From positions 2,688,001-2,752,000 of the forward strand of contig OY760175.1 in assembly GCA_963663165.1 (NCBI GenBank): a DNA stretch of 64,000 bases. The letters run 5' to 3'. The notes under the pieces are model-generated. The model was not told the origin of the DNA, did not search any database, and saw only the letters and a program-made list of their open reading frames with translations. The DNA comes from an uncultured Desulfospira sp. (GTDB taxonomy: Bacteria > Desulfobacterota > Desulfobacteria > Desulfobacterales > Desulfobacteraceae). Below, piece after piece: positions 21,854-41,190 of the stretch (position 1 is the stretch's first letter; every line of letters begins with the position of its first letter). The position numbers were made by a program, and so were the translations under genes.

Positions 21854-22774
21854 ATGTCGACTTTGGTATTTGGCCACAAAAACCCGGATACGGACTCCGT
21901 TTGCGCCGCTGTTGCGCTGGCAGACCTTAAGAAAAAACTCGGGGAAGATATCGCCCCTGCCGTCCAGGGAGAACTCAACCCTGAATCCAATTTTGTTCTG
22001 GGGAAATTCGGCGTTGCCGCCCCTGCCGTTGTGACTTCATACGCCGGCAAAGACGTTTACCTGGTAGACCATTCCGACCTGGCCCAGAGCCCTGATGACC
22101 TGGGGGATGCCAACATCCTGGGCATTGTTGACCACCACAAACTCGGCGACGTCACCACCGGTCAGCCCCTGGAATGCTGGATCTGGCCGGTTGGCTGTAC
22201 CTGTACCGTGATCGCATCCATGTATGACTACTTTGGCATTGAAATTCCCAAAGACATCGCCGGCATCATGCTGTGCGCCATTCTTTCCGACACCGTTATT
22301 TTCAAATCCGCCACCTGCACCGACAAGGACAAAGAAGTCTGCGCCAAACTGTCCGAAATCTGTGGTGAAAGCGATCTTGACGCCCTGGGCATTGAAATGT
22401 TCAAGGTTAAATCCGCTGTTGAAGGCACCCCCATCCGTGACCTGGTCATGAGGGACTACAAAGACTTCAACATGAGCGGTTCCGGCATTGGCTGCGGCCA
22501 GCTCGAACTGGTTGACCTGTCCATCGTTGACGGCATCAAGGCCGACCTTGAAAAAGACATCCGCGATCTCAAGGCTGAAAAAGGACATCACACCGTTCTG
22601 CTCATGCTCACCGACATCATGAAAGAAGGCACCGAACTTCTGGTCGCCTCTGACGACGAAAGTGTTGTGGAAAAAGCCTTTGGTGAAAAACCCGTTGACG
22701 GCAAATGCTGGCTGCCCGGCATCATGAGCCGTAAAAAACAAATCATCCCGTTTCTTGAAAAAGTATTTGGATAG
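21854..22774 (+). CDS. ppaC: Mn-dependent (family II, DHH) inorganic pyrophosphatase
   Basis: GHKNPDTDS, VDHH, SDT, SRKKQ. Confidence 0.95.
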   Translation: MSTLVFGHKNPDTDSVCAAVALADLKKKLGEDIAPAVQGELNPESNFVLGKFGVAAPAVVTSYAGKDVYLVDHSDLAQSPDDLGDANILGIVDHHKLGDVTTGQPLECWIWPVGCTCTVIASMYDYFGIEIPKDIAGIMLCAILSDTVIFKSATCTDKDKEVCAKLSEICGESDLDALGIEMFKVKSAVEGTPIRDLVMRDYKDFNMSGSGIGCGQLELVDLSIVDGIKADLEKDIRDLKAEKGHHTVLLMLTDIMKEGTELLVASDDESVVEKAFGEKPVDGKCWLPGIMSRKKQIIPFLEKVFG

Positions 22775-22796
22775 ACTGTAAATAAAGGGCTTTTGG
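22717..22796. repeat. attL: 80-bp copy of the ppaC 3' end
   Basis: Matches 41111-41190 except one base (22741 A vs 41135 G). Confidence 0.95.
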
Positions 22797-22818
22797 CGTT
22801 TCACCAAAAGCCCTTTTT
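22783..22818 (+). terminator. Rho-independent terminator after ppaC
   Basis: AAAGGGCTTTTGG-CGTTTCA-CCAAAAGCCCTTT followed by T residues. Confidence 0.85.
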
Positions 22819-23166
22819 ATTTCCTAAGCAATCCATCCCCCACACTATCCCCCACACCCAAGGACATTTTGATTCTTCCCGCAATACATCGCCCCCTGTT
22901 CCCGGAATGATTTTTAATCCCCCCCGCCTGCGGGCAATTAGCCCCTGACAAGACAATAAAAGATATCATCCAATCCCTGGTGCGCATGCGTACTTTGCTG
23001 CGTACAAAATCCAGCAATCCCGATTGACACCCCGCCTTTTATGGCTTTTGTGGGGTATGAATGTAAAAAGCGAGAAGGGTAAACAAACTACCCCAGGCAA
23101 GGGTAATTAGCCTGTCAGGGGATAATAAAGGGCGTGCTGTAGTTGCCCCCCTTCCGGGTCCGGCCT

Positions 23167-23424
23167 CTAAGACTCTTCCAGTCTTTTTCGTGATGGCGGG
23201 GGATACTCCTTCCTGTGTTGATCCAGAAAGTTGGGGTTTTCGATTTTGTCCAAAACCCCATAGGGCAATGCATGCTCCTTCCTGAGTCGATCCAGAAAGG
23301 CTTGATAGCATTTGTGCCGCATCGGACACGTTTCGAACGGTTCTTCTTGGGACTCTGATTTCTCCCGTTTCCCGTAGGGCGATTCGTGCAAATCTGGGAA
23401 TAGGTGCTCGTGTCTATGTTCCAC
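23167..23424 (-). CDS. Hypothetical protein
   Basis: GTG start preceded by AAGGAG; internal FLD..RKE repeat. Confidence 0.45.
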   Translation of the reverse strand: MEHRHEHLFPDLHESPYGKREKSESQEEPFETCPMRHKCYQAFLDRLRKEHALPYGVLDKIENPNFLDQHRKEYPPPSRKRLEES

Positions 23425-23467
23425 TTTGGGCTACTCCTTTGACAGGTCAATAACTGGTATGGAAGTT

Positions 23468-23890
23468 TTAAATGTAGAGTAGCCCGTCAAAGAAATCAAT
23501 TACCTTCGCAACCTCTTTGATAAAAGCGTCATAGGCGTCAGCAAAAGACGGGGACATTTTTACATCCGATATGATAGGGTTCTCCGGTTCCGGCCTTTTT
23601 TTTTCTCTGCTCGCTGGTGGGCCACCTTGATGGAATTTTCTTTCAGGCCGGTTTCTTTTGCCACCTCTTTCCTGGCCTGTTTCTTTGACATGCCGTCCTG
23701 CACCTTTTCTTCCACCATGGCCGGTGTCTCTTTGGGGGTTATTTCTGTACCCCCTTGTACCCCGCCCTCACCCCCCCCCCCCGCCGTTGTTGGGTTTTGG
23801 GGATTACTGACATTTGTCAGTGCCTCTCTTTCCTCTTTCTGTGCCCGGTAAAATTTTCTTTCAACAGTGCCTTCTGAACTGCTTTCGGAA
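23468..23890 (-). pseudogene. Possible frameshifted remnant of a K/E-rich DNA-binding protein
   Basis: Long open frame (…DGMSKKQARKEVAKETGLKENSIK…) with no clear start, a C12 run at 23771-23782, and an apparent frameshift in the T run near 23596-23603. Confidence 0.3.
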
Positions 23891-24037
23891 TTTCAGGTTT
23901 TCTCAGGTTTTTTATCATGACCTGGGCTGTAGTTTTCTGTAGGGGTAGATATAAAAAAGCCCCCGGCAGAAAGTACCACCAGGGGCTTGGACGTGTTAAG
24001 AATTGTTTAGGTTTATCCAGTCCTAATCATCCTGCAG

Positions 24038-24193
24038 TTACGCCCCAATCCGTTTGTAAAGGACACGCTCAAGGGCTTCCTTGACAACCTGGGCCATTTC
24101 GGGGTCAAGATCCAGGTTGCCGAATGCCGTATGGATATGCTCCATTGACGGCGTTTGTTTTGCCAGGGCATAGCCCATTGCGTTTTCATCCAT
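24038..24193 (-). CDS. Small hypothetical protein (51 aa, MDENAMGYAL…)
   Basis: ATG at 24193 overlaps the end of the upstream gene; GGGAGG RBS. Confidence 0.5.
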   Translation of the reverse strand: MDENAMGYALAKQTPSMEHIHTAFGNLDLDPEMAQVVKEALERVLYKRIGA

Positions 24194-24416
24194 GGTTTGC
24201 CCTCCCTTTATCCGGAAACGGAATCACATTATCAGGCAAAGCACTGGTTTTTTTCCTGCGGCATTCTTCTGCCCACGCTTTAAGCTCTTCCTTACGCTCC
24301 CTTATGGAGTCTGCAATTCTTGTAAGGGTTGCAAGTGTTTCCTTATCAACGCCCTTTCCAGAACGGCGTTCAAATTCGCGCCAGTCATCGTCCAGGCTGC
24401 TGTGTTTATCTTTCAT
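24186..24416 (-). CDS. Hypothetical protein
   Basis: ATGA-coupled; phage-typical C-terminus 'DNVIPFP…ANHG'. Confidence 0.6.
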   Translation of the reverse strand: MKDKHSSLDDDWREFERRSGKGVDKETLATLTRIADSIRERKEELKAWAEECRRKKTSALPDNVIPFPDKGRANHG

Positions 24417-24748
24417 TTGACCACCCCCTGTTCATCATCGGCAAGGATCTTGGCAATATCAGACCGGCTTACAGGGTTGACGGATTCAGACAAAGCCGCC
24501 AAGGCCGCCCGGAGTTCACTATGCCGTTGTTTTGTCGCCGCCAGGTCATCAGACATCTTGTTATAGGCCTGCTCGATCTCATAGCCGATTTCACCCAAAA
24601 TATTTGAAATGCCAAGCATGGAAAAGGCATCCAATTCCTGGGCTGAATTATCATCTTGAGCGATACAAAAGATCATCTGGCGAATGCTTTGCAAGTTCAT
24701 CAGTCCTTGTGTGGCATCTGGTTTGTAACCTCCGCTAAAAATTGCCAT
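24413..24748 (-). CDS. Hypothetical protein
   Basis: AGGAGGTG RBS; coupled to the next gene. Confidence 0.6.
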   Translation of the reverse strand: MAIFSGGYKPDATQGLMNLQSIRQMIFCIAQDDNSAQELDAFSMLGISNILGEIGYEIEQAYNKMSDDLAATKQRHSELRAALAALSESVNPVSRSDIAKILADDEQGVVK

Positions 24749-24767
24749 GGTTCACCTCCTTGTCTGC

Positions 24768-26727
24768 CAGGAGTTTCGGAGATAAGCCTCTCGGGATTGC
24801 TGAACGCCTTTATTGATAAGCCTTTTCGGCTCTGTCTTTTGTAGTACCCCTCAAATCAAGCCGCCTTCTATGTTAAAAACCCTGTCAAATAGGGCTTTCT
24901 ATTATTTTTCTCTTGACTTATAAGACCCTACCATATACTATGAATCATGGCACATTTCCACATTAAGAAGAAAAAAGGAAGACCCTACCTTTATGTGAGG
25001 GAGATCGCTCGGGTAAACGGCAAACCCAAGGTCATTTCTCAAACCTATATTGGGTCACCGGATCGGGTAGCGGGCCTTGTGAAGGGACAGTCCCAGGAAA
25101 TAACAACCTTGAGGGCTGAAGAATTCGGTGCGCTGTGGCTGGCCCAGCAAGCAGATAAAGACTTTGATCTTTGCTCTTTGATTGATGAGATTATTCCACC
25201 TGCAGATCGAGAAAAAGGACCTACAATAGGGGAATATTTCCTTTATTGTGTCTGGAATCGCATGATTGAGACCGCCAGTAAAAACAAATTGTCGGATTGG
25301 TATAAGAGAACCGCGATCCAGCATATACGCCCTGTCGATCTAAACGAACTCTCATGCAAACGATACTGGGACAAATGGGACCGGGTTGATGAAAAAAACT
25401 TAAACGCTATCATATCCAAGTTCTTTGAACGATTATGGCAGGTCGAAAACCCTTCTTCTGATTGCCTGCTATTTGACACCACTAATTATTATACCTTCAT
25501 GGGAAGCCAAACCGAGTCAGAAATAGCGCGCAGGGGTAAAAACAAGGAAGGGAGGCATCATCTCAGACAGATCGGCCTTGGCCTTCTGGTTGCACGAGAC
25601 ACCAGGCTCCCTTTATTTTATTCGATTTATCCAGGCAACATTCATGATAGCAAACACTTTGAAGCGGTCATGGAGGCAATGTTTGGGGTAGTATGCGCCC
25701 TGAACAAGACCAAAGAGCGGCTTACAATTGTTATTGACAAGGGAATGAATTCAGAAGGGAATTATACCTGGATTGACGAGCATTCCAGGGTCCATTTTAT
25801 TACGACATATTCCACTTATTTTGCCCAGGAACTTGCCACCATCCCACTCGACCAGTTTGAAATTGCAGATACTGCCCGAAACAGAAGGTTGATTGATGAA
25901 GAATGCCAGGATGAGTGTCAATTGGCACATCGGACCAAAAAAGAATACTGGGGCAAGGAGCGGGCAGTTATCATAACTTATAACCCCAGAACAGCCCGAA
26001 AGAAATCATACACCTTTGAAAGCAAGCTTGATACGATCCGACAGGAACTGCTCTTAATGAGGGCCAAGGTGAAAGAAGGGGCCGTTCACTGGAAAAAAGC
26101 CGAGGACATACAAGCCAGATATATCCGGTTGTGTCAAAGGCTTCACATGGCCTCCGATTTATTTACTCTGAATTTTGAAACCTCAGAAGATGGCTTGAAT
26201 ATGAGCTTCCGAAAAGATCCATACATAGTGAAGCAAAAAAAAATGATGTTCGGTAAAAATATTATCATCACAGATAATACGGATTGGGCAACAAGAGACA
26301 TTATTGAAGCGAGTTTAGACCGCTGGCAAGTTGAAGACCGCTTCCGTCTCAGTAAGAATGAGGACTTAGTCGGTGTGCAGCCGATCCGGCACTGGACTGA
26401 CAGCAAAATCAAATGCCATTTATTTACATGTGTGGCAGCCATGGTTTACCTGCGCCGAATTGAATTAAAACTAAAGAACTCCGGAATTGAACGGACAGCA
26501 GAGGACGTCATGGATGATATGAAGCATCTACATTCCATTTTGACGTTGCCGAAAGGTGCAAGAAAACCGACCAGGCGCCTTGAGACGCCGAGTAAGACCC
26601 AGGCCGAAGTCCTATCGGCCTTTGGCTATCATGTTAATGAAGGTGGGGCCTTACAGTCAGAAAATTGAGTTACGCCCGCCAAGCAAGGCTTTCGCCGAGC
26701 CATGCCCTCTTAACCACGAAACTCCTG
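24768..26727 (+). mobile_element. IS1634-family insertion sequence
   Basis: IRs CAGGAGTTTCG / CGAAACTCCTG; 5-bp TSD TCTGC (24763-24767, 26728-26732). Confidence 0.85.
24947..26668 (+). CDS. IS1634-family DDE transposase
   Basis: N-terminal KKKGRPYLY…GKPKV, FDTTN, IDKG, W.VEDRFR..K, IRHW. Confidence 0.88.
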   Translation: MAHFHIKKKKGRPYLYVREIARVNGKPKVISQTYIGSPDRVAGLVKGQSQEITTLRAEEFGALWLAQQADKDFDLCSLIDEIIPPADREKGPTIGEYFLYCVWNRMIETASKNKLSDWYKRTAIQHIRPVDLNELSCKRYWDKWDRVDEKNLNAIISKFFERLWQVENPSSDCLLFDTTNYYTFMGSQTESEIARRGKNKEGRHHLRQIGLGLLVARDTRLPLFYSIYPGNIHDSKHFEAVMEAMFGVVCALNKTKERLTIVIDKGMNSEGNYTWIDEHSRVHFITTYSTYFAQELATIPLDQFEIADTARNRRLIDEECQDECQLAHRTKKEYWGKERAVIITYNPRTARKKSYTFESKLDTIRQELLLMRAKVKEGAVHWKKAEDIQARYIRLCQRLHMASDLFTLNFETSEDGLNMSFRKDPYIVKQKKMMFGKNIIITDNTDWATRDIIEASLDRWQVEDRFRLSKNEDLVGVQPIRHWTDSKIKCHLFTCVAAMVYLRRIELKLKNSGIERTAEDVMDDMKHLHSILTLPKGARKPTRRLETPSKTQAEVLSAFGYHVNEGGALQSEN

Positions 26728-26732
26728 TCTGC

Positions 26733-26909
26733 CAGGCAAGAAAGAACGGCACGGACCTTGTCAAACAGCCGGTCTACATGATTGCTTTCCTGCCAGGTCA
26801 TGGCCGGGTTAAGCTTTTTAGATTCGGGGATGTGAGCCTGCATGAATGACAGCAGGGTTCGGGCTTCGGTTGGGGTGATTTGAGATAGGGCTTGTTGTTC
26901 GTGTTCCAT
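26733..26909 (-). pseudogene. Small ORF downstream of the C4-like RNA, 3' end displaced by IS1634
   Basis: Removing the IS restores …LSCLADKEVNHGNF*, which overlaps the next gene's RBS and start. Confidence 0.6.
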
Positions 26910-26965
26910 TGTTGGGCCTCCAAGGTACTTTGGTTAGGCCCTTTCTGTCCTGCTAAAAACAAAAA

Positions 26966-27033
26966 GGGCAACATGAGGGTTAGCAGACCGGCACCTTGGG
27001 AACCGGCAGCCCGAAGGCTCCCCCATGCTGCCC
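26966..27033 (-). ncRNA. C4-type antisense RNA (P1/P7 c4-like)
   Basis: Closing stem GGGCAGCATG…CATGTTGCCC, AGCC-UUCG-GGCT hairpin, single-stranded CCAAGGT and CTGCTAA complementary to flanking duplicated targets. Confidence 0.75.
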
Positions 27034-27146
27034 AATAGCATACGCATGGAATACAAAAAAAGCGTTCACATGAAATGCAGACGCCTCTTTGCGTCCAAGG
27101 TTTCCCGGCTGCTAATCCGGTACTCCTGAATTTGCAGGAGTGATTT

Positions 27147-27215
27147 ACATTAGGCTGGTATGGGGCGGGCTGTCAAGAAAAAGATTTTGACAACGCAGTC
27201 TCCTGCCAGTATTCT
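27147..27215. promoter_or_regulatory. Back-to-back sigma70-type promoters
   Basis: Plus strand TTGACA(27187)-17 bp-TATTCT. Minus strand TTGACA(27176)-18 bp-TAATGT, facing the C4 locus. Confidence 0.6.
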
Positions 27216-27330
27216 TTTTACTGAGCCACAACCACCTTTTGACGGTTAACGGAGTCAACTGGTGCGTAGCCCTGGGGGTTGTAAGATTCCCCCTTGGCAT
27301 CGGCCTTACCTTAATTCAGAGGATTTATTC

Positions 27331-27567
27331 ATGGGCAAAATCAAACCGTTTGAAGAAAGGCTGGCTGAATGGGAGAGCTGGCCTGAAGGTCCTCGATCCA
27401 TGTTGCATAAGCCTGTTAAAGGAGAATACCGAAAGCTCCGTAAAGAGATTTTCAAAAGAGTGAAAGACCTTGGCTTGAATGATCTGAACGAAATTTTATA
27501 TGTTCTCAAAGAAATGAAAAGCGGGGAATACCGGTACCCGCATTATCGTCACACCACCATACGCTAA
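27331..27567 (+). CDS. Hypothetical basic protein, divergent from the rest of the element
   Basis: ATG 27331 with AGAGGA RBS, downstream of the plus-strand promoter. Confidence 0.55.
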   Translation: MGKIKPFEERLAEWESWPEGPRSMLHKPVKGEYRKLRKEIFKRVKDLGLNDLNEILYVLKEMKSGEYRYPHYRHTTIR

Positions 27568-27575
27568 GGATGGCA

Positions 27576-27863
27576 TCAAGAATATTTTTCAATCAGATGC
27601 TGGGCATCCTCCTTGGTCATCCTATAAGGAAAGCCGGGGTAATCCTCCCTGATTATTTTAACCCGCTTCGATATAAAAATAACCTGGGAGGGATCGCACA
27701 ACCCAAACCTTGCTCGGCACATGGTCAGGATGTATTCTCGCTCCCGGACCCTGGCCTGTTCACCACTGAGCCGGGTGATAACAGTCCGGGAATGGTCGTG
27801 TGAATGCTCAATCTCAATGGCTTTTTCCAGTCGATCCAGCCTGTTTGATAATTGCTTTGACAT
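27576..27863 (-). CDS. Hypothetical protein (MSKQLSNRLDRLEK…)
   Basis: Follows the TerS-like gene by 4 bp; 'RL.RLE' N-terminus. Confidence 0.55.
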   Translation of the reverse strand: MSKQLSNRLDRLEKAIEIEHSHDHSRTVITRLSGEQARVREREYILTMCRARFGLCDPSQVIFISKRVKIIREDYPGFPYRMTKEDAQHLIEKYS

Positions 27864-27867
27864 AAGT

Positions 27868-28260
27868 TCATCTCTTGATTGAAAATTTAAGTTCCAGCGT
27901 TGCAATCCTTGATTCGATATCCTCAAGCTCGACAGCCTTCAGAGCCCCGTCAAGAATCGCCTTTGCTGCTGTTACTCTGGCAGATGCCGGCGCTTCCTTA
28001 TCTCGACAAATTTCAGCCAATGCCCGGGCAGCGTCACCGGTTGTTTGCTGAAGCCTAAGGATTGCCCTGTTGACCAGTTGCCGCTTTGCATTTTTAAGCT
28101 CTTGATCGAAAATCGGATCTCTCAGGTACCGGTACATGGTGGTTTTGGAGACACCGGCAGCTTTGCAGGCGCCCTCAACAGTATCGCAACTTACCAGGGC
28201 CTCCACAGCCTTGGCTTGCTTACCCTTTAATGGGGCGGTTTTCGTTTTGTTTTGATTCAT
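27868..28260 (-). CDS. HTH protein resembling a small terminase subunit (phBC6A51-like)
   Basis: KQAKAVEAL…ACKAAGVSKTTMYRYL.DP.F, then ARV.AAK.ILD. Confidence 0.65.
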   Translation of the reverse strand: MNQNKTKTAPLKGKQAKAVEALVSCDTVEGACKAAGVSKTTMYRYLRDPIFDQELKNAKRQLVNRAILRLQQTTGDAARALAEICRDKEAPASARVTAAKAILDGALKAVELEDIESRIATLELKFSIKR

Positions 28261-28743
28261 TACATCTGCCTTTCAATATTCATTTTTCATGGCACTCCGA
28301 ACTGTAGTTATCTGTAGGAGCAAACGCACCCGGGAAGGCCCCGCAAAGCACAGCTCCACGGGGCAAATACCTCTAATAATGGACCGTACCTGTAGCATTA
28401 TTCTCGATCAACCACGGGGCCGATTGATTATACAGTTTCTGGTTCGATGATTGCGCCATCATGCAACCGCTGAGTATGCGGATTCACTGCGTCTGCTCCA
28501 CACCCCGGGCAGGTCAGGCTACTTCCTTCCCAGTCCGGCCCCCACTCTTCCCATGAACGGGCTTTAAATTTCGGCAGGAGCTTGAACATATTGCCCCGGG
28601 GCTTCTGGTCCGCGCTGAACTCTCTTGTCAGAGAATAAAAAACCTCCCCGCAATTATGGCATTTATGTTGCGACTTTTTTTTGTAGCGAGATTTTCTTCT
28701 ATAAAAAGTTCTAAATGAGTTATTTTCTTTGGATATAGTTTTT

Positions 28744-29169
28744 CTACTTTGCTTCTTCCCTATATTTCTTTGCTTTTAAAAGGAAGCGTTCAACAGTTTC
28801 CGGATCAAAACCCGGCATTGTCCGGGCAAAATCTGCGGCTTTTTGATAGTATTCTCCCGCTTCATGCTTTTTTCCCTGAGCTTCATAGACCTGTCCCAAC
28901 CTGTGAAAGCCGTCAATCTGATTTGGATATTCATGCAATAATCTCTTTGATACAGCTTCTGCCTCGTCGAATTTGTTTTCATCGATCAGATCAATCACAC
29001 TGTTTGAAAGCAGATCCAATTCCGTGTAAACTGGTGTAAACCCGGCAGGATAGGGCTTGGGTTGAGTTCCCGCTGACTGCAACGACAAACAACACTTCTT
29101 ATATTTCTTACCGCTGCCGCAAGGGCATGGTGTATTGCGACCGATCTTTGCCATGGGAAAATGTTTCAT
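28744..29169 (-). CDS. SEC-C motif / TPR-like protein
   Basis: [18 protein letters not shown], then TPR-like helices ([10 protein letters not shown]…A.EYYQKA). Confidence 0.85.
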
Positions 29170-29198
29170 ATTTTGAATTTTAACGCAAGGTTAAAGTC

Positions 29199-29807
29199 GT
29201 GCAGCTCCGATTCGCCACCGACATTCCTGTTGAACAATATATAGAGGAGGAGGCATGGAAAGATGCAAAACTGGATCGGTGCCCGTTACATCCGGAAGGT
29301 GGCTGCAAATTTGCCAGGCATGGGACCTATTGCAGAAAGTATCCCGACGGTGCAAAAATCGCCCGGTGGTATTGTCCGGATGGCAGGACCACCTTCGGGC
29401 TGTTGCCCGATTGCCTGTCCTCACGTCTGCCAGGGACACTGATGGAGGCGGAAACGGTCATCAATCAGATCGAAGCAGCACCAAGCCAGGAGGCCGCAGC
29501 AGACAATATGCGTCCAGATATCGGCCTGCCTGGTGTCTTGCGATGGATGAGGCACAGACTGTTTTTGATTCATGTAAGTTTGATTTTATTAATCGACCTG
29601 ATTCCGTCCTTATCCAATGATGGTCAGGCAACCTTATCATCATTGAGATCTGCACTTGGGGTTGAGTTTGTTTTACCCCATCTCCGGGAACTTGCCGCTT
29701 CACATTTGGATATCCTGCCACCGCCGTTAGGGTTTGGCCCTCGCCCTCAAAAAAAACATCATGGAAAAAGCCGGTTCCAACAACAAACGGGGCCTGATCC
29801 CCCCTGA
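29199..29807 (+). CDS. Hypothetical Cys/His protein typical of transposon accessory genes
   Basis: CPLHPEGGC.FARHGTY.R, RWYCP…TF.LLPDCL, C-terminal GPDPP. Confidence 0.6.
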   Translation: MQLRFATDIPVEQYIEEEAWKDAKLDRCPLHPEGGCKFARHGTYCRKYPDGAKIARWYCPDGRTTFGLLPDCLSSRLPGTLMEAETVINQIEAAPSQEAAADNMRPDIGLPGVLRWMRHRLFLIHVSLILLIDLIPSLSNDGQATLSSLRSALGVEFVLPHLRELAASHLDILPPPLGFGPRPQKKHHGKSRFQQQTGPDPP

Positions 29808-29854
29808 GAAAAAGGGTAAATTGCCTTTAACGATCATTTCAAGGAGGCAATGCC

Positions 29855-30340
29855 ATGGAGACCGGACAAAATAAAGCCAAAAATCGGAATCAAAAGCCCC
29901 AACGCCGTTTTCGTGCGTCCATTGCAAAAAATCCCATAGATCCCTGCCGCATCAGAAAAATTGCAGGAAGCTTTGCTTTTATCGAGCACCGGTTCCTGCG
30001 GGACGGATTCTGGGCAAGCCTGGATCATCATCAGCTCCTGCTGTACCTGTTTTTGATTATCGTGGCGGATCGTCATGGGCTGTCCTATTACGGCTATGAT
30101 AAAATCTGCACCCTGCTCAGGATTTGTGTTGATGACTACATCCTTGCCAGGAATGCCTTGATTGACAAGAACCTGGTCGCATTTGACGGCAACCTTTTCC
30201 AAGTATTGTCCCTTCCGGAAAGAGTGGCTCTGCCCTCAGCAGCCCCCCTTCAAAGCCAAAAAGACATGGAACTGCACGATCCGGCAACCATCCGCAGCCT
30301 TGTCCTGCAATCTTTTGGAGGCAGCCATGATGGAAGTTGA
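29855..30340 (+). CDS. Hypothetical wHTH-like protein typical of transposon accessory genes
   Basis: RIRKI.GSFAFIEHRFLRDGF, LLYLFL.IVADRHGLSYY; AAGGAGG RBS. Confidence 0.65.
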   Translation: METGQNKAKNRNQKPQRRFRASIAKNPIDPCRIRKIAGSFAFIEHRFLRDGFWASLDHHQLLLYLFLIIVADRHGLSYYGYDKICTLLRICVDDYILARNALIDKNLVAFDGNLFQVLSLPERVALPSAAPLQSQKDMELHDPATIRSLVLQSFGGSHDGS

Positions 30341-31214
30341 CAATAAGGTCACCAAAGCAGTGGAGAAATACCTGGACTACTGTCGAGATCAAGCTTCCGG
30401 GGATGCGGTGTCCTATACAAAAAGGACATTAACAAATTTTGCGGCCTATCTTCAGGGGGAAAACACCTCTTTGGGCAACATATCCATTGACCAGGTCGAT
30501 CAATTTTTAGCAGTCTGCAACAAGGGGCGTGCTCCCGGGACATGCAGGACGCACCGGTCACATGTACGAAGATTTTTAAAGTACCTTTATCAACACGGAG
30601 ATCTTAAAAAGGACCTTGGCGCTTTAGTGGTAAGCCCTCCGGAGTTCGGACCACCAAAGCCGCCCAAATTTTTGCGCACTCATGAAATTCAAAAGTTGTT
30701 TGACAGTCTGGACCTGTCAACAGCAAAAGACCTTCGCACCAATGCCACCCTGCATCTGGCATGTTATCTGGGGTTAAGGCCGAAAGAAATCAGGTTGCTA
30801 ACTCTGGATGACATCTCATTTAGACAGAAAGAGATTTTTATCCGTTCAAGAAAAAATTGCAATCCTGCTCATCTTCCCCTTCCCGATAACATAATCAAAG
30901 CGATCACTGCCTATATTGTGGGCGGGAGACCTGAAACTCAATCCCGAGTTCTATTTTTACAGTTGACACCACCTTATAAACCGGCCAACAGGAGCGATAT
31001 CCCCCGAGATATAAAAGAATGCATGACGAAAAACAATCTTGGATCAAGCACATACTGGCTGCGGCATTCATTTGCCCAGAATATGTTGGAGTCCGGTATG
31101 TCCATCTATGAAATCAAAGAAATGATGGGACATAAAAGCCTCGATTCGACAAAAAAGTATCTGAGCATTCATATCGGCCTGATGCGGGAGGTTATCCTTG
31201 ATGAAACGTTTTAA
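30327..31214 (+). CDS. Tyrosine recombinase (RitA-like)
   Basis: GLRPKE, WLRHS, MGH…KKY; GGAGG RBS before ATG 30327. Confidence 0.88.
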   Translation: MMEVDNKVTKAVEKYLDYCRDQASGDAVSYTKRTLTNFAAYLQGENTSLGNISIDQVDQFLAVCNKGRAPGTCRTHRSHVRRFLKYLYQHGDLKKDLGALVVSPPEFGPPKPPKFLRTHEIQKLFDSLDLSTAKDLRTNATLHLACYLGLRPKEIRLLTLDDISFRQKEIFIRSRKNCNPAHLPLPDNIIKAITAYIVGGRPETQSRVLFLQLTPPYKPANRSDIPRDIKECMTKNNLGSSTYWLRHSFAQNMLESGMSIYEIKEMMGHKSLDSTKKYLSIHIGLMREVILDETF

Positions 31215-32175
31215 AAGTTTCTTGGCTGAACAAATGGAGGATTTTATCACATATCGTTTTCAACTGGGGTACTCAAACACCTCAATGATGTACGGTCTTA
31301 GGGTACTTGATCGATATGTGTCTGAAAAACAAGTGACTTGGACATCCTTTGATCCGCTGTTTTTTATCCGGTTCAGAGCAGAACTTGATCTTGAACCCCG
31401 GTCCATAAATACGATTTTTAGAATGCTCAAGATCTTTTTCAATTATCTTATACGCAAAGATGTGATTCTGGAAAATCCGTTGCAGGAAATCACTGAGCTA
31501 CAGGAAAATCACGTTATTCCTTTTATATTTTCTCCGGAAGAAACAGACCGTTTTCTCAAAGCTGTAATCAAGTCGATGCGGACAAGCCAGAGATTCTATG
31601 TGTCAGATTTCAGTGCTTATATAGCCTTTTTGTTGATGGCCCGGTGCGGACTTAGAACCTCGGAGACACTTAATTTATTGAAAACCCATTACAGGCCCGA
31701 AGAAAGAACAATCTATATTGAAAAGACAAAATTTAGAAAAGATCGATTGATCCCTATACCCAAAGCCGTAGCCTATGAAATCAACAACCTGCTAAAAGTT
31801 CGCCGGTTATTCCCTGATGAGGATGACAGCCCTTTTTTGCTGGTAAAGGTGAAAGGGAAAAAACTGGTACGTATGTTTATAAATCGCAGATTTAAACAGG
31901 CTCTCACAGATATTAATTTTGATCACTCCCGGAAAATAATCGGTACTACAAACTTCAGCCAGCCTTCACATCATTCCCTGCGGCATTCGTTTGCTGTGAA
32001 CACGCTGAAAAGGATAAAACAGCAAGGAAAATCCTGCCAAAATGCCCTGCCTGTACTGGCGGCTTATATGGGGCACAGCAAATACAAATACACAACCTAT
32101 TATTTGAAGGTACTGGATGCTGAGCACCGTTGGCAACTGTTTGATTTTTCGAAATCAAAAAGCGAGGGTGCATGA
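31201..32175 (+). CDS. Tyrosine recombinase (RitB-like)
   Basis: GLRTSE, TKFRKDRLIP, HSLRHSFAV, L.AYMGH…TTYYL. Confidence 0.9.
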   Translation: MKRFKSFLAEQMEDFITYRFQLGYSNTSMMYGLRVLDRYVSEKQVTWTSFDPLFFIRFRAELDLEPRSINTIFRMLKIFFNYLIRKDVILENPLQEITELQENHVIPFIFSPEETDRFLKAVIKSMRTSQRFYVSDFSAYIAFLLMARCGLRTSETLNLLKTHYRPEERTIYIEKTKFRKDRLIPIPKAVAYEINNLLKVRRLFPDEDDSPFLLVKVKGKKLVRMFINRRFKQALTDINFDHSRKIIGTTNFSQPSHHSLRHSFAVNTLKRIKQQGKSCQNALPVLAAYMGHSKYKYTTYYLKVLDAEHRWQLFDFSKSKSEGA

Positions 32176-33191
32176 GATTGACAAGTTGCCTGCACCAGTA
32201 TTTTTATGAATACTTGCCCTCGATAAAAGGGACGAGCAAACAAAGTGTTCAAGCTTACCAGCAGAGCCTGTCGTTATTTCTGCATTTTCTGGCGAATCAT
32301 CACTCAATAAAAATCAAGTCATTGAAAATCGAACACTTAACGGTGGATGCAGTGCTTGCCTTTCTCCAGCATCTGGAAAAAAACCGAAAAAATAGCGTGC
32401 AGACTCGAAACCAACGCCTGGCCGTGATTAAGTCTTTGGCCAAGATGATCCGCTTCATGCATCCGGATAAAAAACGAATTGCCGATAGGCTCCTGAACAT
32501 CCCTCAGAAAAGAGCTCAAAAAAAGGTGATGGGATTTTTATATCCTGAAGAAATCATGAAAGTCTTCAGTGCCGTTGATCTGAAAAAGAAAGAAGGCATG
32601 AGGGATTTTACCATTCTCCATCTGCTTTATGACTCCGGTGCCCGGGCCAGTGAAATTGCCACATTGGAATTTGATTATTTTGACCCCGAAAACGAAACCA
32701 TTGCGGTCCTGGGAAAGGGAAACCGATACCGGTTGATTAATCTATGCTCCAGAACCGCCTCCTTGATCTCGGACTATATCAGCAATCACAGGGTAGATCC
32801 CATCCCTTTATTTGCCCATAGGCTGTTTATCAATCAACGGAAGCGGGAAATGACCAGACATGGAATTAATAAAATTTGCAGGAAGTATTTGACCTTGGCC
32901 TTGCCGGAAAAACGGCTGAAAGGACTGAGCCCGGCTCACTGCTTCAGGCATTCGTGCGCGGTCAACATGGTCAGTTCAGGTGCTCCGGTATCGGATATCA
33001 AAAATCGTCTTGGTCATCAAAGTATTGAATCAACAATGACCTATCTGCAGCTGGATCTGTCAAAAAAACGGGAAGTCCAAAATACGCTCATGGAATACAT
33101 GCAATCGAAAATAACTCATGACAAAAAAATTGATGAGTTAATCGACTGGGGAAATAGTGCTGAAATCCTTGCCTGGCTTGACAGTTTATGA
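32172..33191 (+). CDS. Tyrosine recombinase (RitC-like)
   Basis: TRNQRLA, SGARASE, HCFRHS, LGH…T.TY, C-terminal LAWLDSL. Confidence 0.9.
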   Translation: MRLTSCLHQYFYEYLPSIKGTSKQSVQAYQQSLSLFLHFLANHHSIKIKSLKIEHLTVDAVLAFLQHLEKNRKNSVQTRNQRLAVIKSLAKMIRFMHPDKKRIADRLLNIPQKRAQKKVMGFLYPEEIMKVFSAVDLKKKEGMRDFTILHLLYDSGARASEIATLEFDYFDPENETIAVLGKGNRYRLINLCSRTASLISDYISNHRVDPIPLFAHRLFINQRKREMTRHGINKICRKYLTLALPEKRLKGLSPAHCFRHSCAVNMVSSGAPVSDIKNRLGHQSIESTMTYLQLDLSKKREVQNTLMEYMQSKITHDKKIDELIDWGNSAEILAWLDSL

Positions 33192-33694
33192 ACCACTGAA
33201 GCAGCTTTTGCTATCTTTGGAGGGGTATGTAGTAAAACAAAAAATTATGTTGCCACTGATCTTTAAAATTTCTAAAATAACTTTTAACGTGTTGAATTTT
33301 AATACAATATTGATTTGCAATGTGAATAGCTAAAATCGCCTTTAAATTTAACAGGTTAGACCCACTCGCAACATAATACTATTTAAGAAAAGGTCCAGCT
33401 GGTTCAGGTTCCGGGGTGGCCGGTGCTGCTTCTGCTGCTTCAAACTCTTTGATAACAGCTGCACCAGTTTTCGAAACATTGATTCCGGTCCAGGGCCTTG
33501 TCATGTCCTGGCCCTGGACACGGACAGCAAGCCCTTTCTTTTCCAGGCTCAACACGGCTTTTTCGTATTGCTCAGTAGACTTTTGGTCCGCATCCGGATC
33601 AACTACCATGGCCCTGGTTTTGTATTGAATTCCAGGGACGCCGCCCACGATCTCAGCGGCAAACAGATCAGCATAAAATTCAAGCTCCGGCAAA

Positions 33695-34265
33695 CTAAAC
33701 AACCACCGGCTTAAAGCCGGTGGGTTTAAGAGCGCGGACTGAAAGTCCAGCGATACCGGCAATAGCCGGTTGAAATGCGTCACTCTACATCAAAATGGTC
33801 ATTAGGGTCTTTTTCAAAATGATGTTCGAGATATTCCTGAATCATTTCCTTTGTCAACTCACCAACGGTCACACAAAAATACCCACGGGCCCAAAAATGC
33901 TTGCCCCAATACCGTTTCTTCAAATGAGGAAATTCCTCAAACACTTTTCGAGACACTCGGCCTTTGATCCGACGCATTATATCCGAAGGAGAAATGTTCG
34001 GTGGTGCCGAAACCAGGATGTGAACGTGATCTTTGCTTACAACTCCACGCAAAATGTGGATTTCGAACCTTTCACAAGTTTGGCGTACGAGTTCTCTGAC
34101 TCGCAATGCAACATCCCCCTGCAATACGTGATATCGGTATTTGGTTACCCAAACAAAGTGATACTCTATTTTGAACTTCGTATGACTGTTTTGCCGATAG
34201 CTCATGTAAAGCACTATAAAACAACTACTGGCAAAATGCTACCCGCCTAAAGGCGGGGGTTTTAA
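33695..34265 (-). mobile_element. IS200-type element (tnpA only), ~571 bp
   Basis: Subterminal hairpins at 33701-33727 and 34241-34263; no TSD; ends ambiguous by about 3 nt. Confidence 0.8.
33780..34214 (-). CDS. tnpA: IS200/IS605 Y1 transposase
   Basis: YHFVWVTKYR, DHVH (HUH), FWARGYF, YL. Confidence 0.95.
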   Translation of the reverse strand: MLYMSYRQNSHTKFKIEYHFVWVTKYRYHVLQGDVALRVRELVRQTCERFEIHILRGVVSKDHVHILVSAPPNISPSDIMRRIKGRVSRKVFEEFPHLKKRYWGKHFWARGYFCVTVGELTKEMIQEYLEHHFEKDPNDHFDVE

Positions 34266-34668
34266 CCTTTTACAGAAACAATAAAAAACTGCAACCAAGG
34301 GGCTTTCTTTTTCCATTCTTCAATGACCTTTTCCGCCTCCGCCCGGGACCAGCAAACACGCCCGGCCGCCCAAATAAACCCAGCCCGTATAAAATTTTCA
34401 ATATACAATCCATTAGTCCGCGCCGGGGCGATCTCGCTTCCAAACATTTCCTTGACTTGTTTTAAAAATACATCAGGATTCACGTTTGCTTGATATGCCT
34501 GGCCGCTGTTTTCATATATTGCCTCCGGCATATGGTCATAGCCGACCTCTTGGGGTGGTACAGGCAACGGACATTTTACCGCCGGTCTCCAGAAAGGGGG
34601 TTGCCGGTGTTCCCGTTTTTGGTTTTCCAAAGCTCTTGTCAAAATTTCGGTTTCAAGTTTTAATAATT

Positions 34669-34836
34669 TCATGATGGGTTTCCTTTCTGTTTTTTGTTTT
34701 TTGATTCTTGTTCCAAATATTCAATCAATTGGGTTTTCATCTGCGAGACCTTGAGCAGGCGCAGATATGCAACTTCAAGTTGATTTCGTGATAGGGATTT
34801 GATATCCACGGTTTTCAGTTTGATTGCTTCATCCAT
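34669..34836 (-). CDS. Small hypothetical protein (55 aa, MDEAIKLK…)
   Basis: Start and stop overlap both neighbouring genes. Confidence 0.5.
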   Translation of the reverse strand: MDEAIKLKTVDIKSLSRNQLEVAYLRLLKVSQMKTQLIEYLEQESKNKKQKGNPS

Positions 34837-36478
34837 ATTGTTCCACTCCCCACGCCTGATAATTTCCTGAATAGGTGTATTTCAATTCTACAGAGCCCAG
34901 CTTGCCAATCTCTTTAAACCGGATTTTCTGGATAATGATTGTCGTAAGGTTGGTTTCAAAATCCCGGTAAACACAAAGCCCATTATCGGCCTTATTCCGC
35001 CAATGAGCCCCGCCTGAGATATCGTACATGCTTGGGGGCGGATATTTCCCGGCAAGGTTTTTTTGAAGTTTCGTTGGGTGAGCCACGATCCAGATATGTA
35101 TTCCGTTGAGCCTGGCAAAGCGCCGGACCTTGGTAAGCTCCTGAGAAATATATTGGGTTTCTGACAATCCATTGAAGCAGTGTTCGACTTCGTTCCAAGG
35201 ATCGATTACAAGGCCTTTTATCCCAAACTGAAGGCAAAGCACCCGGGCATATTTTAAGATCGTGTCTATAGAAAGAAGTTCGCTTTTAGGGGCAATGAAC
35301 TTGACGTAATCGTCCAACATTTCCATTCCTTCTTTTGCCTCTGCTGGGGTCATTCTGTCTCCATATCTGGTGGGTCTGAAAGATTTGCCCAGCATTTTTT
35401 CTATGAGCGTTTCGGCATGTCTTTGAAGCGGCCAATTCTCAGGGCTAAAAAACCCAATCCTCCAGACACAGGTTTTAATCAGATTGACACAGAGGGCATC
35501 CACAAAATTTGATTTGCCGGAGCCTGGAATTCCAGTCACGATGGTCAGTTCTCCAGGCCGGACCGTGTAAAACTCATCCAGGTTAGACCAGCCGGTTTTT
35601 TCTCCGCCCTGAATTCCCTGGGTATATTCCTGCATAACCACATCGGTCAGGCTCAAGGGGGAAATTATTCCCTCAACCGGAAAAGGTTTTGCCTTTTTCA
35701 AGACCTCGACAAGAGCCTCTTTCCCGTGTTTGACAAGAACGTCATTGCAATCCTTGCAGCCTGCTGGGTATTCAACGACAAAACACTTTTCCACTCCGAT
35801 CCGCCGCCCCAATTCCTGAACAGCTCTTTTCCCGGGGGCGTCGTTGTCCCCGGCAATGATAATTTTCTCAAAACGGGAGAACAGCTTTTCAGTTCCTTTT
35901 AAAAAATCAAATTTGGTACTGAAATTTTTTGAATTTTCGGACGGCGCGCCGTCTGGGATACTTACAGCTTCATATCCGGCAACAAGGCAGGAAAGGGCGT
36001 CTATTTCGCCCTCAGTGATAACCAGCTCCTTTTGGGTTGATCCCATGGCTTTGTCACGGCGGTAAAGGCATTTCTTCCCGCCTTTTTCCTGCCGGAAATC
36101 TTTTGTGGCTGTCCGGTACTTCACATTCACGCAGACCGAATTGTAAAAATATGGGAATTTGATCCAGCCCTTTCCATAAGACTCTTCAAAACCGATATGC
36201 TCTTGTTCGAGAATGCCTTGAGATATCCCCCGTGATTCAAAATACCGGATCACCTTTTCTGGCAGAGACTTTTTTAATTCATACGGGATGGGCTTGACGT
36301 CACTTTTTTTCAAGGAACCGCTCCACCCACAATGATGACAGATCCAAACGCCTTCAATTGTATTAACAGCCAGGCACTTTTCATTTTTCTTTTTTCTGGT
36401 CGGGGAGCATTGGGGGCAAGTTGTGCGAACCTCTGTCCCACTCCCTTGAACGTGTATACCGTAGCTTTCGAAACTCAT
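34829..36478 (-). CDS. Primase-helicase (T7 gp4/Twinkle-like)
   Basis: Zn finger CPQC…CHHC, TOPRIM (ITEGEIDALS, AGDND), SF4 helicase (TGIPGSGKS, IDPWN, VAHP). Confidence 0.9.
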   Translation of the reverse strand: MSFESYGIHVQGSGTEVRTTCPQCSPTRKKKNEKCLAVNTIEGVWICHHCGWSGSLKKSDVKPIPYELKKSLPEKVIRYFESRGISQGILEQEHIGFEESYGKGWIKFPYFYNSVCVNVKYRTATKDFRQEKGGKKCLYRRDKAMGSTQKELVITEGEIDALSCLVAGYEAVSIPDGAPSENSKNFSTKFDFLKGTEKLFSRFEKIIIAGDNDAPGKRAVQELGRRIGVEKCFVVEYPAGCKDCNDVLVKHGKEALVEVLKKAKPFPVEGIISPLSLTDVVMQEYTQGIQGGEKTGWSNLDEFYTVRPGELTIVTGIPGSGKSNFVDALCVNLIKTCVWRIGFFSPENWPLQRHAETLIEKMLGKSFRPTRYGDRMTPAEAKEGMEMLDDYVKFIAPKSELLSIDTILKYARVLCLQFGIKGLVIDPWNEVEHCFNGLSETQYISQELTKVRRFARLNGIHIWIVAHPTKLQKNLAGKYPPPSMYDISGGAHWRNKADNGLCVYRDFETNLTTIIIQKIRFKEIGKLGSVELKYTYSGNYQAWGVEQYG

Positions 36479-37228
36479 TTAAAACGCCTTTTGGAAAAGA
36501 GATTGACTTGATTCTTTTTGAACGGCCTGGTCCTTGCCCCGAATGATGCCCCGGAAATATTTTTCACCTTTACCTGATTTCCAGTATTGGCCATCCACGT
36601 ATGCGGTAAGGGCGGCATTGATTGTTTCGTTGGGGTACTGTTTCCAATATTCAATTTCTTTCTGAATGACACCGGATGAAATCTGACCGGTTTTTCTGGT
36701 GGAAATAAATCCGTCTATGGTTTGTTCGAGTTTTGATTTATCCCATCCGTTTATCACCGGTGAGAAAAATTCTAAGACAGAAATCGCCCTTTTATGTTTA
36801 TTTACATTATCTACATTATTGTTTGTGTCCTTTGGTTGTCCCTTGCCTGTCCTTTGCCTGTCCGTTTGGGTGTCCTCTTTTTTGTTCGGATGTTGATAAA
36901 GTTCCCAGTTGACAATGGTTACAATAGAAAAATGGGTGTCCGTTTGGATGTCCAGATTTTCAACCTTTTTTAATTTTTCCATGCGGTTTCTAATCGTGGA
37001 TGGGCTCATCTTGAGTTCTTTGGCTGCAGTTTTACGACCGAAAATAAATTGACCCTTTCTCAATAATATTTCGGTCTCTCCACGACCTGTTTTGACCGGG
37101 ACCCACCTATCTTCGTGACCAGCTTTCAATAAACACCAAATCCAAACTTTAAGAAGTCCCTCATTCTGAAAGACTCGTGAATCTAAGAGCTTTCGATGGA
37201 GGAAAATGAACCCGGCGAGATCCATCAT
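36479..37228 (-). CDS. Phage-type replication initiator
   Basis: GFIFLHRKLLD…W.WCLLKA.H, RKGQFIFGR..A.EL, IVTIVNWELYQ; internal iterons. Confidence 0.75.
   Translation of the reverse strand: MMDLAGFIFLHRKLLDSRVFQNEGLLKVWIWCLLKAGHEDRWVPVKTGRGETEILLRKGQFIFGRKTAAKELKMSPSTIRNRMEKLKKVENLDIQTDTHFSIVTIVNWELYQHPNKKEDTQTDRQRTGKGQPKDTNNNVDNVNKHKRAISVLEFFSPVINGWDKSKLEQTIDGFISTRKTGQISSGVIQKEIEYWKQYPNETINAALTAYVDGQYWKSGKGEKYFRGIIRGKDQAVQKESSQSLFQKAF
36791..36875. repeat. Putative replication origin: iterons plus AT-rich 9-mers
   Basis: TGTCC units at 36826, 36837, 36848, 36859, 36871, next to TTTACATTA/TCTACATTA. Confidence 0.65.
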
Positions 37229-37443
37229 TCGGCCTCACTCATTACGACAAGGCGGTCATGGAGCCTGGACAGCCTGTTACTTTTCGGAAAAAAACGAATG
37301 GCCAGTTCGGCCACCCAGGGGTACAGGTGGCCGGCTGCTGATTTTTTGATATTTCCAATCTGAAAGCGCCCGGCCAGGCGCTTTTGGTTTTTGGGACGGT
37401 TATAGCGCATGGTCCTATGCCGAGAGGCAAACGCGGTTTGCAT
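37225..37443 (-). CDS. Hypothetical protein
   Basis: Overlaps alpA and rep in the same operon. Confidence 0.4.
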   Translation of the reverse strand: MQTAFASRHRTMRYNRPKNQKRLAGRFQIGNIKKSAAGHLYPWVAELAIRFFPKSNRLSRLHDRLVVMSEAE

Positions 37444-37603
37444 CTAGATATCTGTCTAACGCATCCTGGTCATAGCGGGGGGACCTGCCACCAACCAGGA
37501 TATAGTCCGGGCCTTTTCGCTGGTGCCTCCAGTTGTATAGGGTTTGTACTGCGATCCTGAGATAGTCCGCCGCCTCTTGAGTTGTCATGAGTTTTTTGTC
37601 CAT
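37415..37603 (-). CDS. AlpA/excisionase-like HTH protein
   Basis: LMTTQEAADYL.IAVQTLYNWR…GPDY…RY. Confidence 0.85.
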   Translation of the reverse strand: MDKKLMTTQEAADYLRIAVQTLYNWRHQRKGPDYILVGGRSPRYDQDALDRYLDANRVCLSA

Positions 37604-37982
37604 GCCTAAAAATCCTTTCGGTTTTGGGGTATTGCCGTTTTTTACCGGCGTTTTGGAGAAGTATATTTTTGGATGGAGATATCGTCACCCGACATAGCGG
37701 TAAATCCATATAAAGTTATATAGATTTACCGCCATATCCCTAAAATCGAATTATCCATTGATTTCAAATGGTTACAAATTTACATTTTTTATATAAAAAT
37801 TCAGCCAGAACGGCTGGACAAGAATAAACATGAAATGATTTAAATTAACGATGATTGTAGGACTACTTTGATGAGGGGGATGGTTCTGCAATGACTCCTG
37901 ATTAAACGTGCCCCAGGAAGGCGACCAGGAAACCGCCTGTTCGGTCCGGGTAGCTATTCCGGGCCTATCCTGGGGAAAGAGA

Positions 37983-38342
37983 TTACAGCCTTAATTCAAC
38001 CTGGAAATCCGTTGCGTTGACGATGGGCCGGACCATGCCTTTTTCCTTGATCAGATCAACAATCCCATAATTTGAAAGGGTTTTCAGTGTCCGGGAAAGG
38101 TTTGATTTTTTTCGCCCTGACAATGCTTCCAGTTCAACCAGAGACGCCGGGTGCCGGTCCCGGATCAATCTTAAAAGCTTTTGATTCTGGCCGCTCAAGA
38201 CCTGACCCAGGGATTCCATGGATTCAAACCATACCTTGGGTTCGTTCTTACGGGGCTTATATTCCCCCTTGGCAATGGCAATGGTCCGGTGCTTGTAATC
38301 TTCCTTTGACATGATGCCGATTTTCATGGTTTTGCTGGCCAT
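37983..38342 (-). CDS. HTH DNA-binding protein (HVO_A0114-like), putative antitoxin
   Basis: WFESMESL..VLS..N..LL.LI…P.SL.EL…GRKKSNLSRTLKTL. Confidence 0.75.
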   Translation of the reverse strand: MASKTMKIGIMSKEDYKHRTIAIAKGEYKPRKNEPKVWFESMESLGQVLSGQNQKLLRLIRDRHPASLVELEALSGRKKSNLSRTLKTLSNYGIVDLIKEKGMVRPIVNATDFQVELRL

Positions 38343-38346
38343 TCTC

Positions 38347-38700
38347 TTATCCTCTCAATAAATATTCATCCACAGCCGCCCAAAAATCTTCAAGCAATTG
38401 TCCGGCGGTTTCAAAAGAGTACGGTGCCACTTTATCCAAGTCGTGTTTATGGTCCCATGTGACTATGCGCCCGGTAAAGCCCTTTTTCCTGACCGGTTTC
38501 ACGGCATGGGCATTGTCAAATCCAATCACCCGGGTATTATATCTGTCATGCAAGGACAGGGAGTACCTTATTCCGTGTGGCGCATGTTGGTCCGGGTGAA
38601 TTGGCTTTGCGTTGAATTTTACCCAGTACCCGTTATCCATTGGAAAAATTTCACCGTCCAGATCCAGCAGGGTATCAAGTGAACCATATTTGCCATTCAT
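38347..38700 (-). CDS. DUF6516 (TumE-like) putative toxin
   Basis: PHGIRYSL.LHD…R..GFDNAH, DH.H, L.EDFW. Confidence 0.7.
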   Translation of the reverse strand: MNGKYGSLDTLLDLDGEIFPMDNGYWVKFNAKPIHPDQHAPHGIRYSLSLHDRYNTRVIGFDNAHAVKPVRKKGFTGRIVTWDHKHDLDKVAPYSFETAGQLLEDFWAAVDEYLLRG

Positions 38701-38751
38701 GTTATCATCCGATGATAATTTGTCAAGGTTTGTCCGCCTGTTTTGGAAAAT

Positions 38752-39642: not shown

Positions 39643-39726
39643 ATCTATTTTGAGGTGACAATTTGGCACCTCAAGTTTATTTAGCCCATCTCATGGTTTT
39701 GGAGGTTACAATTTGTGATCTCCAAT

Positions 39727-40890: not shown

Positions 40891-41110
40891 CGTTTATTCC
40901 CCACTTTTTAAAACAATTATTTGGTTGTGATTCTTTTATATCAATGCTTTTAGTCGCTTAGTCTTCCCCACACTATTCCCCACATCTATGGTAAATATAC
41001 AGGTATCTGTGAGTAAGTCAAGGTAATAGATACAACATCGAACAGATTGAAATTAAAAGGTTTTGGTATGATTTTGGGAAATACGGTAAATACAGGGAAA
41101 TAGGCGATTT

Positions 41111-41190
41111 CGGCATCATGAGCCGTAAAAAACAGATCATCCCGTTTCTTGAAAAAGTATTTGGATAGACTGTAAATAAAGGGCTTTTGG
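41111..41190. repeat. attR: displaced copy of the ppaC 3' end
   Basis: 80-bp repeat of 22717-22796. Confidence 0.95.

Follow-up and report, generated by a model that had tools for sequence, protein, structure and literature searches.

A C4-type antisense RNA with two matched target pairs in a satellite-like element of a likely sulfate-reducing bacterium

The window, a 64-kb stretch of DNA from what is likely a sulfate-reducing bacterium of the Desulfobacteraceae (a homolog named Desulfobacter sp. points to this family), carries on its minus strand a C4 antisense RNA at 27033-26966 that is flanked on both sides by short sequences complementary to its two loops. It matches the Rfam C4 model (RF01695) over positions 9-79 of 87 with 45.1 bits, a score barely above the gathering cut-off of 45 (E 2e-5), and this is the sole gathering-level Rfam match in the whole window and the only C4 match genome-wide; a second switch was found neither by Rfam nor by a profile of our C4-locus alignment (A1). 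The RNA folds into a three-way junction at -41.3 kcal/mol (z -4.3), with none of 500 shuffles equally low, and its long stem covaries among 19 aligned loci. Its loops are b' (CCAAGGT, 26999-26993) and a' (CTGCTAA, 26986-26980). A sequence-only reading of this DNA had named the RNA as C4 and had both loops exposed by the junction; the identity is borne out by the Rfam score, and a' is indeed open in the predicted fold of C4 alone, but three of the seven b' bases are paired there.

Upstream of the RNA lie the targets a1 (TTAGCAG, 27115-27109) and b1 (ACCTTGG, 27101-27095), and downstream of it follow a2 (TTAGCAG, 26956-26950) and b2 (ACCTTGG, 26926-26920), all on the minus strand and, like the loops and the junction, exactly at the coordinates that had been claimed. 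The last target does run into the ribosome-binding site, as had been noted: the leading GG of GGAGG (26921-26917), which stands 7 nt ahead of the ATG at 26909, belongs to b2 as well, so that target and binding site together span 26926-26917, and the GGAGG is predicted to be paired even without C4 binding. Both 7-mers on both flanks occurred in none of 20,000 dinucleotide shuffles (upstream only in 6, downstream only in 5), and ACCTTGG is found 22 times on both strands of the window. As candidate host targets in trans, three further TTAGCAG-ACCTTGG pairs are present genome-wide against about 0.9 expected, none of them leader-like by eye. Moreover, a2 sits between the arms of a predicted alternative hairpin at 26969-26938, formed by the 3' end of the C4 stem and 26944-26938; the complement reaches at least 5 nt in 37 of 48 related loci, counted without a shuffle control, and the hairpin is absent from the minimum-energy fold at our locus.

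Transcription would start from a predicted sigma-70 promoter at 27176-27147 with TTGACA (27176-27171), an 18-nt spacer and TAATGT. This earlier assignment is strengthened by the perfect -35 box and its spacing, given that 43 of the 48 loci carry TTGAC 115-175 nt ahead of C4, but the -10 box is weak (three of six matches) and a promoter scanner made no call at 27176-27147. Back to back with it lies a divergent sigma-70-like promoter at 27187-27215 on the plus strand (TTGACA-17-TATTCT, 10/12) that precedes a 78-aa open reading frame at 27331-27567 (+), which has GAGGA as its ribosome-binding site, matches no family and is possibly an accessory gene.

The leader at 27141-27055 begins with a hairpin at 27141-27122 that has a GCAAATTC loop and double changes at five of its six pairs in the 19 aligned loci. 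Its best Rfam match is isrK (RF01394) at 40.6 bits, below the cut-off of 50 (E 3e-7); it also resembles the c4-a1b1 model (RF03163), to which the sequence-only reading had pointed, but stays under that cut-off as well (24.6 against 46.7 bits, E 7e-4). We would therefore call the leader isrK/seqA-like and c4-a1b1-like, probably working like isrK, and file it as a member of neither isrK nor c4-a1b1.

Between the a1/b1 sites and C4 we found a feature absent from the earlier reading, namely an attenuator in which a predicted intrinsic terminator competes with an antiterminator that overlaps b1. The terminator at 27087-27055 consists of the arms Y and Z and a run of seven T (-9.8 kcal/mol), and its helix covaries; the antiterminator hairpin at 27097-27078 (-8.8 kcal/mol) pairs the same 5' arm Y with X, which starts with the last three b1 bases, so that the two structures are mutually exclusive. 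A terminator scanner picked the X:Y stem instead of Y:Z. Among relatives, the terminator is present in 44 of the 46 loci having a1, X was found in 33 of these 44 (the automatic parse gave no X in 11), and all 25 loci in which X was found and b1 reaches at least 6 nt show an overlap of b1 with X. X matches its own Y over 4.79 nt compared to 3.44 nt for foreign partners (34 loci; 0 of 20,000 permutations), while the corresponding Z:Y test is weak, its fixed window having often caught the wrong T-run. With a1 and b1 blocked in silico, X:Y formed at a mean probability of 0.31 instead of 0.86 and the terminator at 0.96 instead of 0.67, with the caveat that blocking the bases of a helix lowers this helix trivially. 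At the window locus the terminator is predicted to dominate already at equilibrium without blocking (0.98), so attenuation must be kinetic or co-transcriptional; in the nascent prefix, blocking drops X:Y just from 0.85 to 0.54. The same X, Y and Z motifs are carried by P1 (folded) and P4 (read by eye), and P1 also folds a post-C4 hairpin around a2 like our locus, which makes these elements features of the family and not a local novelty. The P4 leader reportedly contains a CI-dependent intrinsic terminator, t1. Our literature search, with the primary P1 and P4 papers outside its coverage, found no paper describing the antiterminator.

The a1-b1 / c4 / a2-b2 layout proposed from the sequence holds, with both target pairs complementary to a' and b' and backed by covariation. 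The Rfam C4 model gave matches in 8 of 151 genomes from the order and in 23 of 151 from the family, counting the genome of the window itself, and we analysed 49 loci (48 distinct) from 29 genomes, leaving out four listed matches. a1 is perfect over 7/7 nt in 43 of the 48 loci and a2 in 45; b1 reaches at least 6 nt in 35, being degenerate in the other 13, and b2 does so in 42 and in most loci overlaps the ribosome-binding site. With 20 different a-codes among the 48 loci, the downstream match is complete in 42 of the 48 own pairs, against 29 of 2256 foreign ones. An alignment of 19 loci (of 24 prepared, the five more divergent ones being omitted) pairs a' with a1 in all 133 cells with 30 double changes and with a2 in 95.5% of 133 cells with 28 double changes, two rows being misaligned, and the four intramolecular helices are paired at 98.1%; sliding the alignment as a control reduced pairing to 13-61%. 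Loops and targets thus change together across 48 distinct loci. As a single genus contributes 13 of the 49 loci through two of its genomes and loci are related and not independent, the permutation and shuffle counts given here overstate the case and are not probabilities. Regarding selection for orthogonality within genomes, cross-matches occur in 2 of 90 within-genome pairs compared to 29 of 2256 overall and are therefore not depleted.

The first gene behind the switch, ORF1 (26909-26728, minus strand), is interrupted after about 60 codons by an insertion element at 24768-26727 (+) that has a DDE_Tnp_1 transposase (Pfam), 11-bp inverted ends, a 5-bp target duplication and a second genomic copy at 99.7%, and which we take to be IS1634-like. 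While the frame of ORF1 runs on for 79 aa into this DNA, its six homologs are 63-64 aa long (77-88% identity) and five of them end in Lys-Glu-Val, a motif whose codons lie beyond the IS in the window, indicating that ORF1-4 were formerly one operon. The 1.96-kb element now places ORF2-4 2 kb from the switch: ORF2 (24748-24416, 111 aa) belongs to a small orphan helical family with 11 representatives (model predicted to be helical, pTM 0.44), ORF3 (24416-24189, 76 aa) has no family in Pfam, PHROGs or PADLOC searches, and ORF4 (24193-24041, 51 aa) has homologs in two related loci, L053 and L056, at 57-60% identity. The claim that the switch controls four small proteins is thus right for the ancestral operon, but the IS splits ORF1 and has probably cut ORF2-4 off from the switch. 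Output is therefore probably crippled, though the RNA may still be made. Following ORF4, a hairpin and T-run at 23988-23953 on the minus strand looks, on visual inspection, like the terminator that ends the ORF1-4 operon. The IS transposase gene (24947-26668, plus strand) runs toward the C4 operon, and one may speculate that antisense read-through RNA could titrate C4.

None of our searches connected ORF1-4 with icd, antirepressor or interference functions, the analogy suggested from sequence: the four have no family in Pfam, PHROGs (E<0.01) or PADLOC and no BLASTP match to P1 Icd, and the Atlas matches of their products are all below 0.9. The nearest named Atlas cluster for ORF2 is "Derepression protein" (PF25738, 0.77), a candidate that we rejected, as neither Pfam nor a BLASTP comparison with part of P4 epsilon supported it. 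We found no ORF2 relatives in viral contigs, and the homologs of ORF2 in L050-L052, L056 and L057 come with no similar switch in the DNA examined.

All of this lies within an integrated element bounded by 80-bp direct repeats of 98.75% identity at 22717-22796 and 41111-41190, the left one being presumably the 3' end of a putative inorganic pyrophosphatase gene and the right one lying beyond an integrase gene (39727-40890, assigned by domain and family searches). The element measures 18.4 kb, or about 10.7 kb minus insertions, and further encodes an ORF6N antirepressor-like protein, TumE/HVO_A0114, an excisionase, a DnaD-like protein, a primase-helicase and a small terminase; neither a large terminase nor a capsid gene turned up among the element ORFs scanned. 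With att ends, an integrase, an excisionase/AlpA-like gene, a replicon, terS and neither capsid nor large terminase, it has the gene set of PICI-like elements, in agreement with the satellite proposed earlier, and it is from this gene set that we infer the name. The TumE/HVO_A0114 toxin-antitoxin-like pair at 37983-38700 is 87-97% conserved in the syntenic element L054.

Four insertions with near-identical genomic copies (99.7-100%), at 24768-26727, 28654-33385, 33694-34285 and 38984-39360, break three genes of the element, namely ORF1, a 310-aa gene (twice) that is a single gene in L054 compared to three pieces in the window, and the ORF6N antirepressor-like gene. The 4.7-kb element at 28654-33385, presumably RIT-like, encodes three tyrosine recombinases and has three near-identical and several diverged genomic copies, and the 376-bp MITE-like element at 38984-39360, which splits the ORF6N antirepressor-like gene, has no transposase and two more copies at 99.7-100%. 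Carrying four insertions in three genes, the element is probably defective. No circular junction or IS-free form over 22500-41400 was seen in four contig sets, and contigs drop rare variants; one X1 contig skips the element from 22817 to 41217 with 26 other letters in between (depth 83, many other letters), which we read as the empty site of a related strain. A search for a helper phage with the Terminase_6N family alone gave no match in the genome.

Switches of the C4 type have been known since 1990. In immI of phages P1 and P7 (NC_005856), the P1c4 promoter is followed by a1 and b1, the c4 RNA, a2 and b2, and icd-ant, and the parts are in the same order here. Spacings in the window and in P1 agree within 1 nt for a1-b1 (14 and 14 nt), a2-b2 (30 and 29), b2-ATG (17 and 18) and the -35 box to a1 (61 and 60), and differ for b1 to C4 (68 and 74 nt). 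Also shared are the leader hairpin loop, a b2 placed over the ribosome-binding site that precedes a small first ORF, and the motifs of terminator, antiterminator and post-C4 hairpin; distant BLAST matches of the C4 locus are the c4 sequences of P7 and RCS47 (79% over 47 nt). By contrast, the codes differ (a TTAGCAG and b ACCTTGG here, a TTGACAG and b GTTAGTG in P1), the element is an integrated satellite-like island instead of a phage-plasmid, its operon is split by an IS, and no icd or ant homology is found downstream, so this is a C4-family switch and not an immI operon. The P1 leader itself stays below the isrK cut-off at 35.1 bits, and the P1 record labels its a1/b1 sites "putative".

P4 immunity (X51522: PLE, seqA, CI RNA, seqC) scores on the same three Rfam models, with P4 itself reaching 44.1 bits on c4-a1b1, and shares the satellite context; unlike in P4, our switch is located downstream of rep, primase-helicase and terS and not upstream of replication genes, and no capsid-redirection genes were found in the element. 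The parts of PMC4825925, PMC3632133 and PMC10111431 that we draw on describe P4 CI as acting via termination by pairing with seqA and seqC, and PMC3632133 equates IsrK/C4 with seqA/CI in such a passage. Taken together, layout, near-equal spacings, common Rfam models and common leader motifs uphold the analogy to P1 and P4 that had been drawn, and the reading of 27033-26966 as a C4-family switch working like P1 immI and P4 CI is well supported.

Similarly, Gifsy-1 as described in portions of PMC4825925 (IsrK/STnc1160/orf45-anrP) has a terminated leader of the isrK kind and, behind it, a C4-like RNA and a small ORF, as here, but IsrK is reported as an activator there, our leader scores below the isrK cut-off, and we find no AnrP-like gene. 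Sections of PMC10111431 report Rfam C4 and isrK matches in several PICIs (GN-PICIs, HE-PICIs) in Bro-network zones, which in the text concerned precede the replication zone, unlike in our element, whose cargo also lacks a Bro domain. The founding C4 alignment (Weinberg et al. 2010, supplement of PMC2864571) includes Desulfotalea psychrophila (NC_006138.1/446698-446777), an accession confirmed in an excerpt of PMC3991886; as in the window, this row has upstream targets, a T-tract, a downstream a2 and a b2 before the start codon, but code and element differ. The deltaproteobacterial setting of C4 is hence not new, being present in that alignment of 2010, of which a main-text passage of PMC2864571 gives the taxa as "Proteobacteria, phages". 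Parts of PMC5320573 treat C4 processing and specificity, and an excerpt of PMC8201110 adds literature context for the switch. A limited literature search turned up no paper on C4 RNA switches in elements of sulfate reducers. The window locus is an ordinary further member of the C4 family and no new class of system.

We consider it likely that this C4 RNA with its two matched target pairs acts in the satellite-like element as in P1 and P4, the RNA of about 70 nt shutting its own operon at two points. The fold, the four sites with their covariation, the hairpins of the leader, a b2 that reaches into the ribosome-binding site and an ORF1 broken by the IS are what the sequences show, and we infer the following dynamics. 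The promoter at 27176 would make the leader, and before C4 has accumulated X:Y would form and transcription read through; cleavage of RNase P type at the base of the long stem, with P1 as precedent, would free the C4 RNA. Its a' and b' loops would bind a1 and b1 on new transcripts, b1 pairing would weaken X:Y in favor of the Y:Z terminator, and the resulting stop at 27055 would limit C4's own supply. On transcripts that have read through, the loops would bind a2 and b2 and cover the ORF1 ribosome-binding site, with probable polarity on coupled genes. The net effect would be a short burst of ORF1-4 expression on entry of the element, then silence and immunity against any newly arriving element that shares the 7+7-nt code.

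A rather different logic would apply if the terminated leader 27141-27055 bound a' and b' in unprocessed mRNA, refolded it and thereby opened the ORF1 ribosome-binding site, as IsrK of Gifsy-1 activates its own read-through mRNA in trans according to passages of PMC4825925. Complementarity alone does not give the direction of regulation, isrK is the best Rfam match of the leader, and the ribosome-binding site is predicted to be sequestered in the full transcript, with the alternative hairpin conserved. We nonetheless find such activation unlikely, as in most loci b2 occupies the ribosome-binding site just like the annotated repression site of P1; besides, activation and repression are not exclusive, and the leader could act as a sponge for C4.

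It would also be rather surprising to us if the switch were an inert remnant that functioned ancestrally and is no longer expressed or selected in a decaying element. The four insertions in ORF1, the 310-aa gene and the ORF6N antirepressor-like gene as well as the lack of circular junctions in the contigs of four runs and of Terminase_6N matches in the genome speak for this, but the four targets, the two loops and every helix have stayed intact. Being so similar to their other copies, the insertions may have happened so recently that decay would not yet be apparent either way, and rare forms would be dropped from contigs. That the complementarity is due to chance or to a DNA-level repeat without RNA function is hardly conceivable: the 7-mers are short and ACCTTGG is frequent in the window, but the shuffles, the Rfam match and above all the double-sided compensatory changes contradict it, and we regard this reading as refuted by covariation.

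Beyond repression of its own operon by the C4 RNA, the preferred reading, code and cargo vary independently among relatives: an ORF1-like gene (86% identity) stands behind the C4 of L035 with a different code, L025b has the window's code and other cargo, and the syntenic L054 has a different code. Because of these three loci one could imagine an interchangeable 7+7-nt address system in Desulfobacterales with codes swapped independently of backbone and cargo, in which C4 of the damaged element is still made and confers immunity in trans against arriving elements of matching code and the antiterminator is the general mechanism of a1/b1, a set of ideas that we advance tentatively and with considerable doubt. 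The importance of the locus is modest, as a clean example with 48 natural code variants in Desulfobacterales; the set provides phylogenetic support for the four target sites, a testable attenuator model for a1/b1, and near-orthogonal RNA/target pairs for sulfate reducers (with so few foreign pairs matching).

A cargo scan of 41 related loci (58 of 70 candidate ORFs) showed that for 20 of the 41 switches one of the first two genes behind is of the Bro-N, AntA, Rha or ORF6N type, with 10 of these 20 loci coming from the two congeneric genomes that supply 13 of the 49 loci. In one genus, 5 and 8 C4 matches were counted in two genomes, most of them ahead of Bro-N genes. The lack of a2 in L045 and L017 and a mismatched a1 in L033 possibly mark decayed or recently re-coded switches. 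In L031 (1632-2792, genome G186), an integrase is the next ORF after the C4 switch, and tandem C4 switches with different codes lie about 1.4-1.5 kb apart at L055 (7291-8933, genome G222) and at L015/L018 (genome G026).
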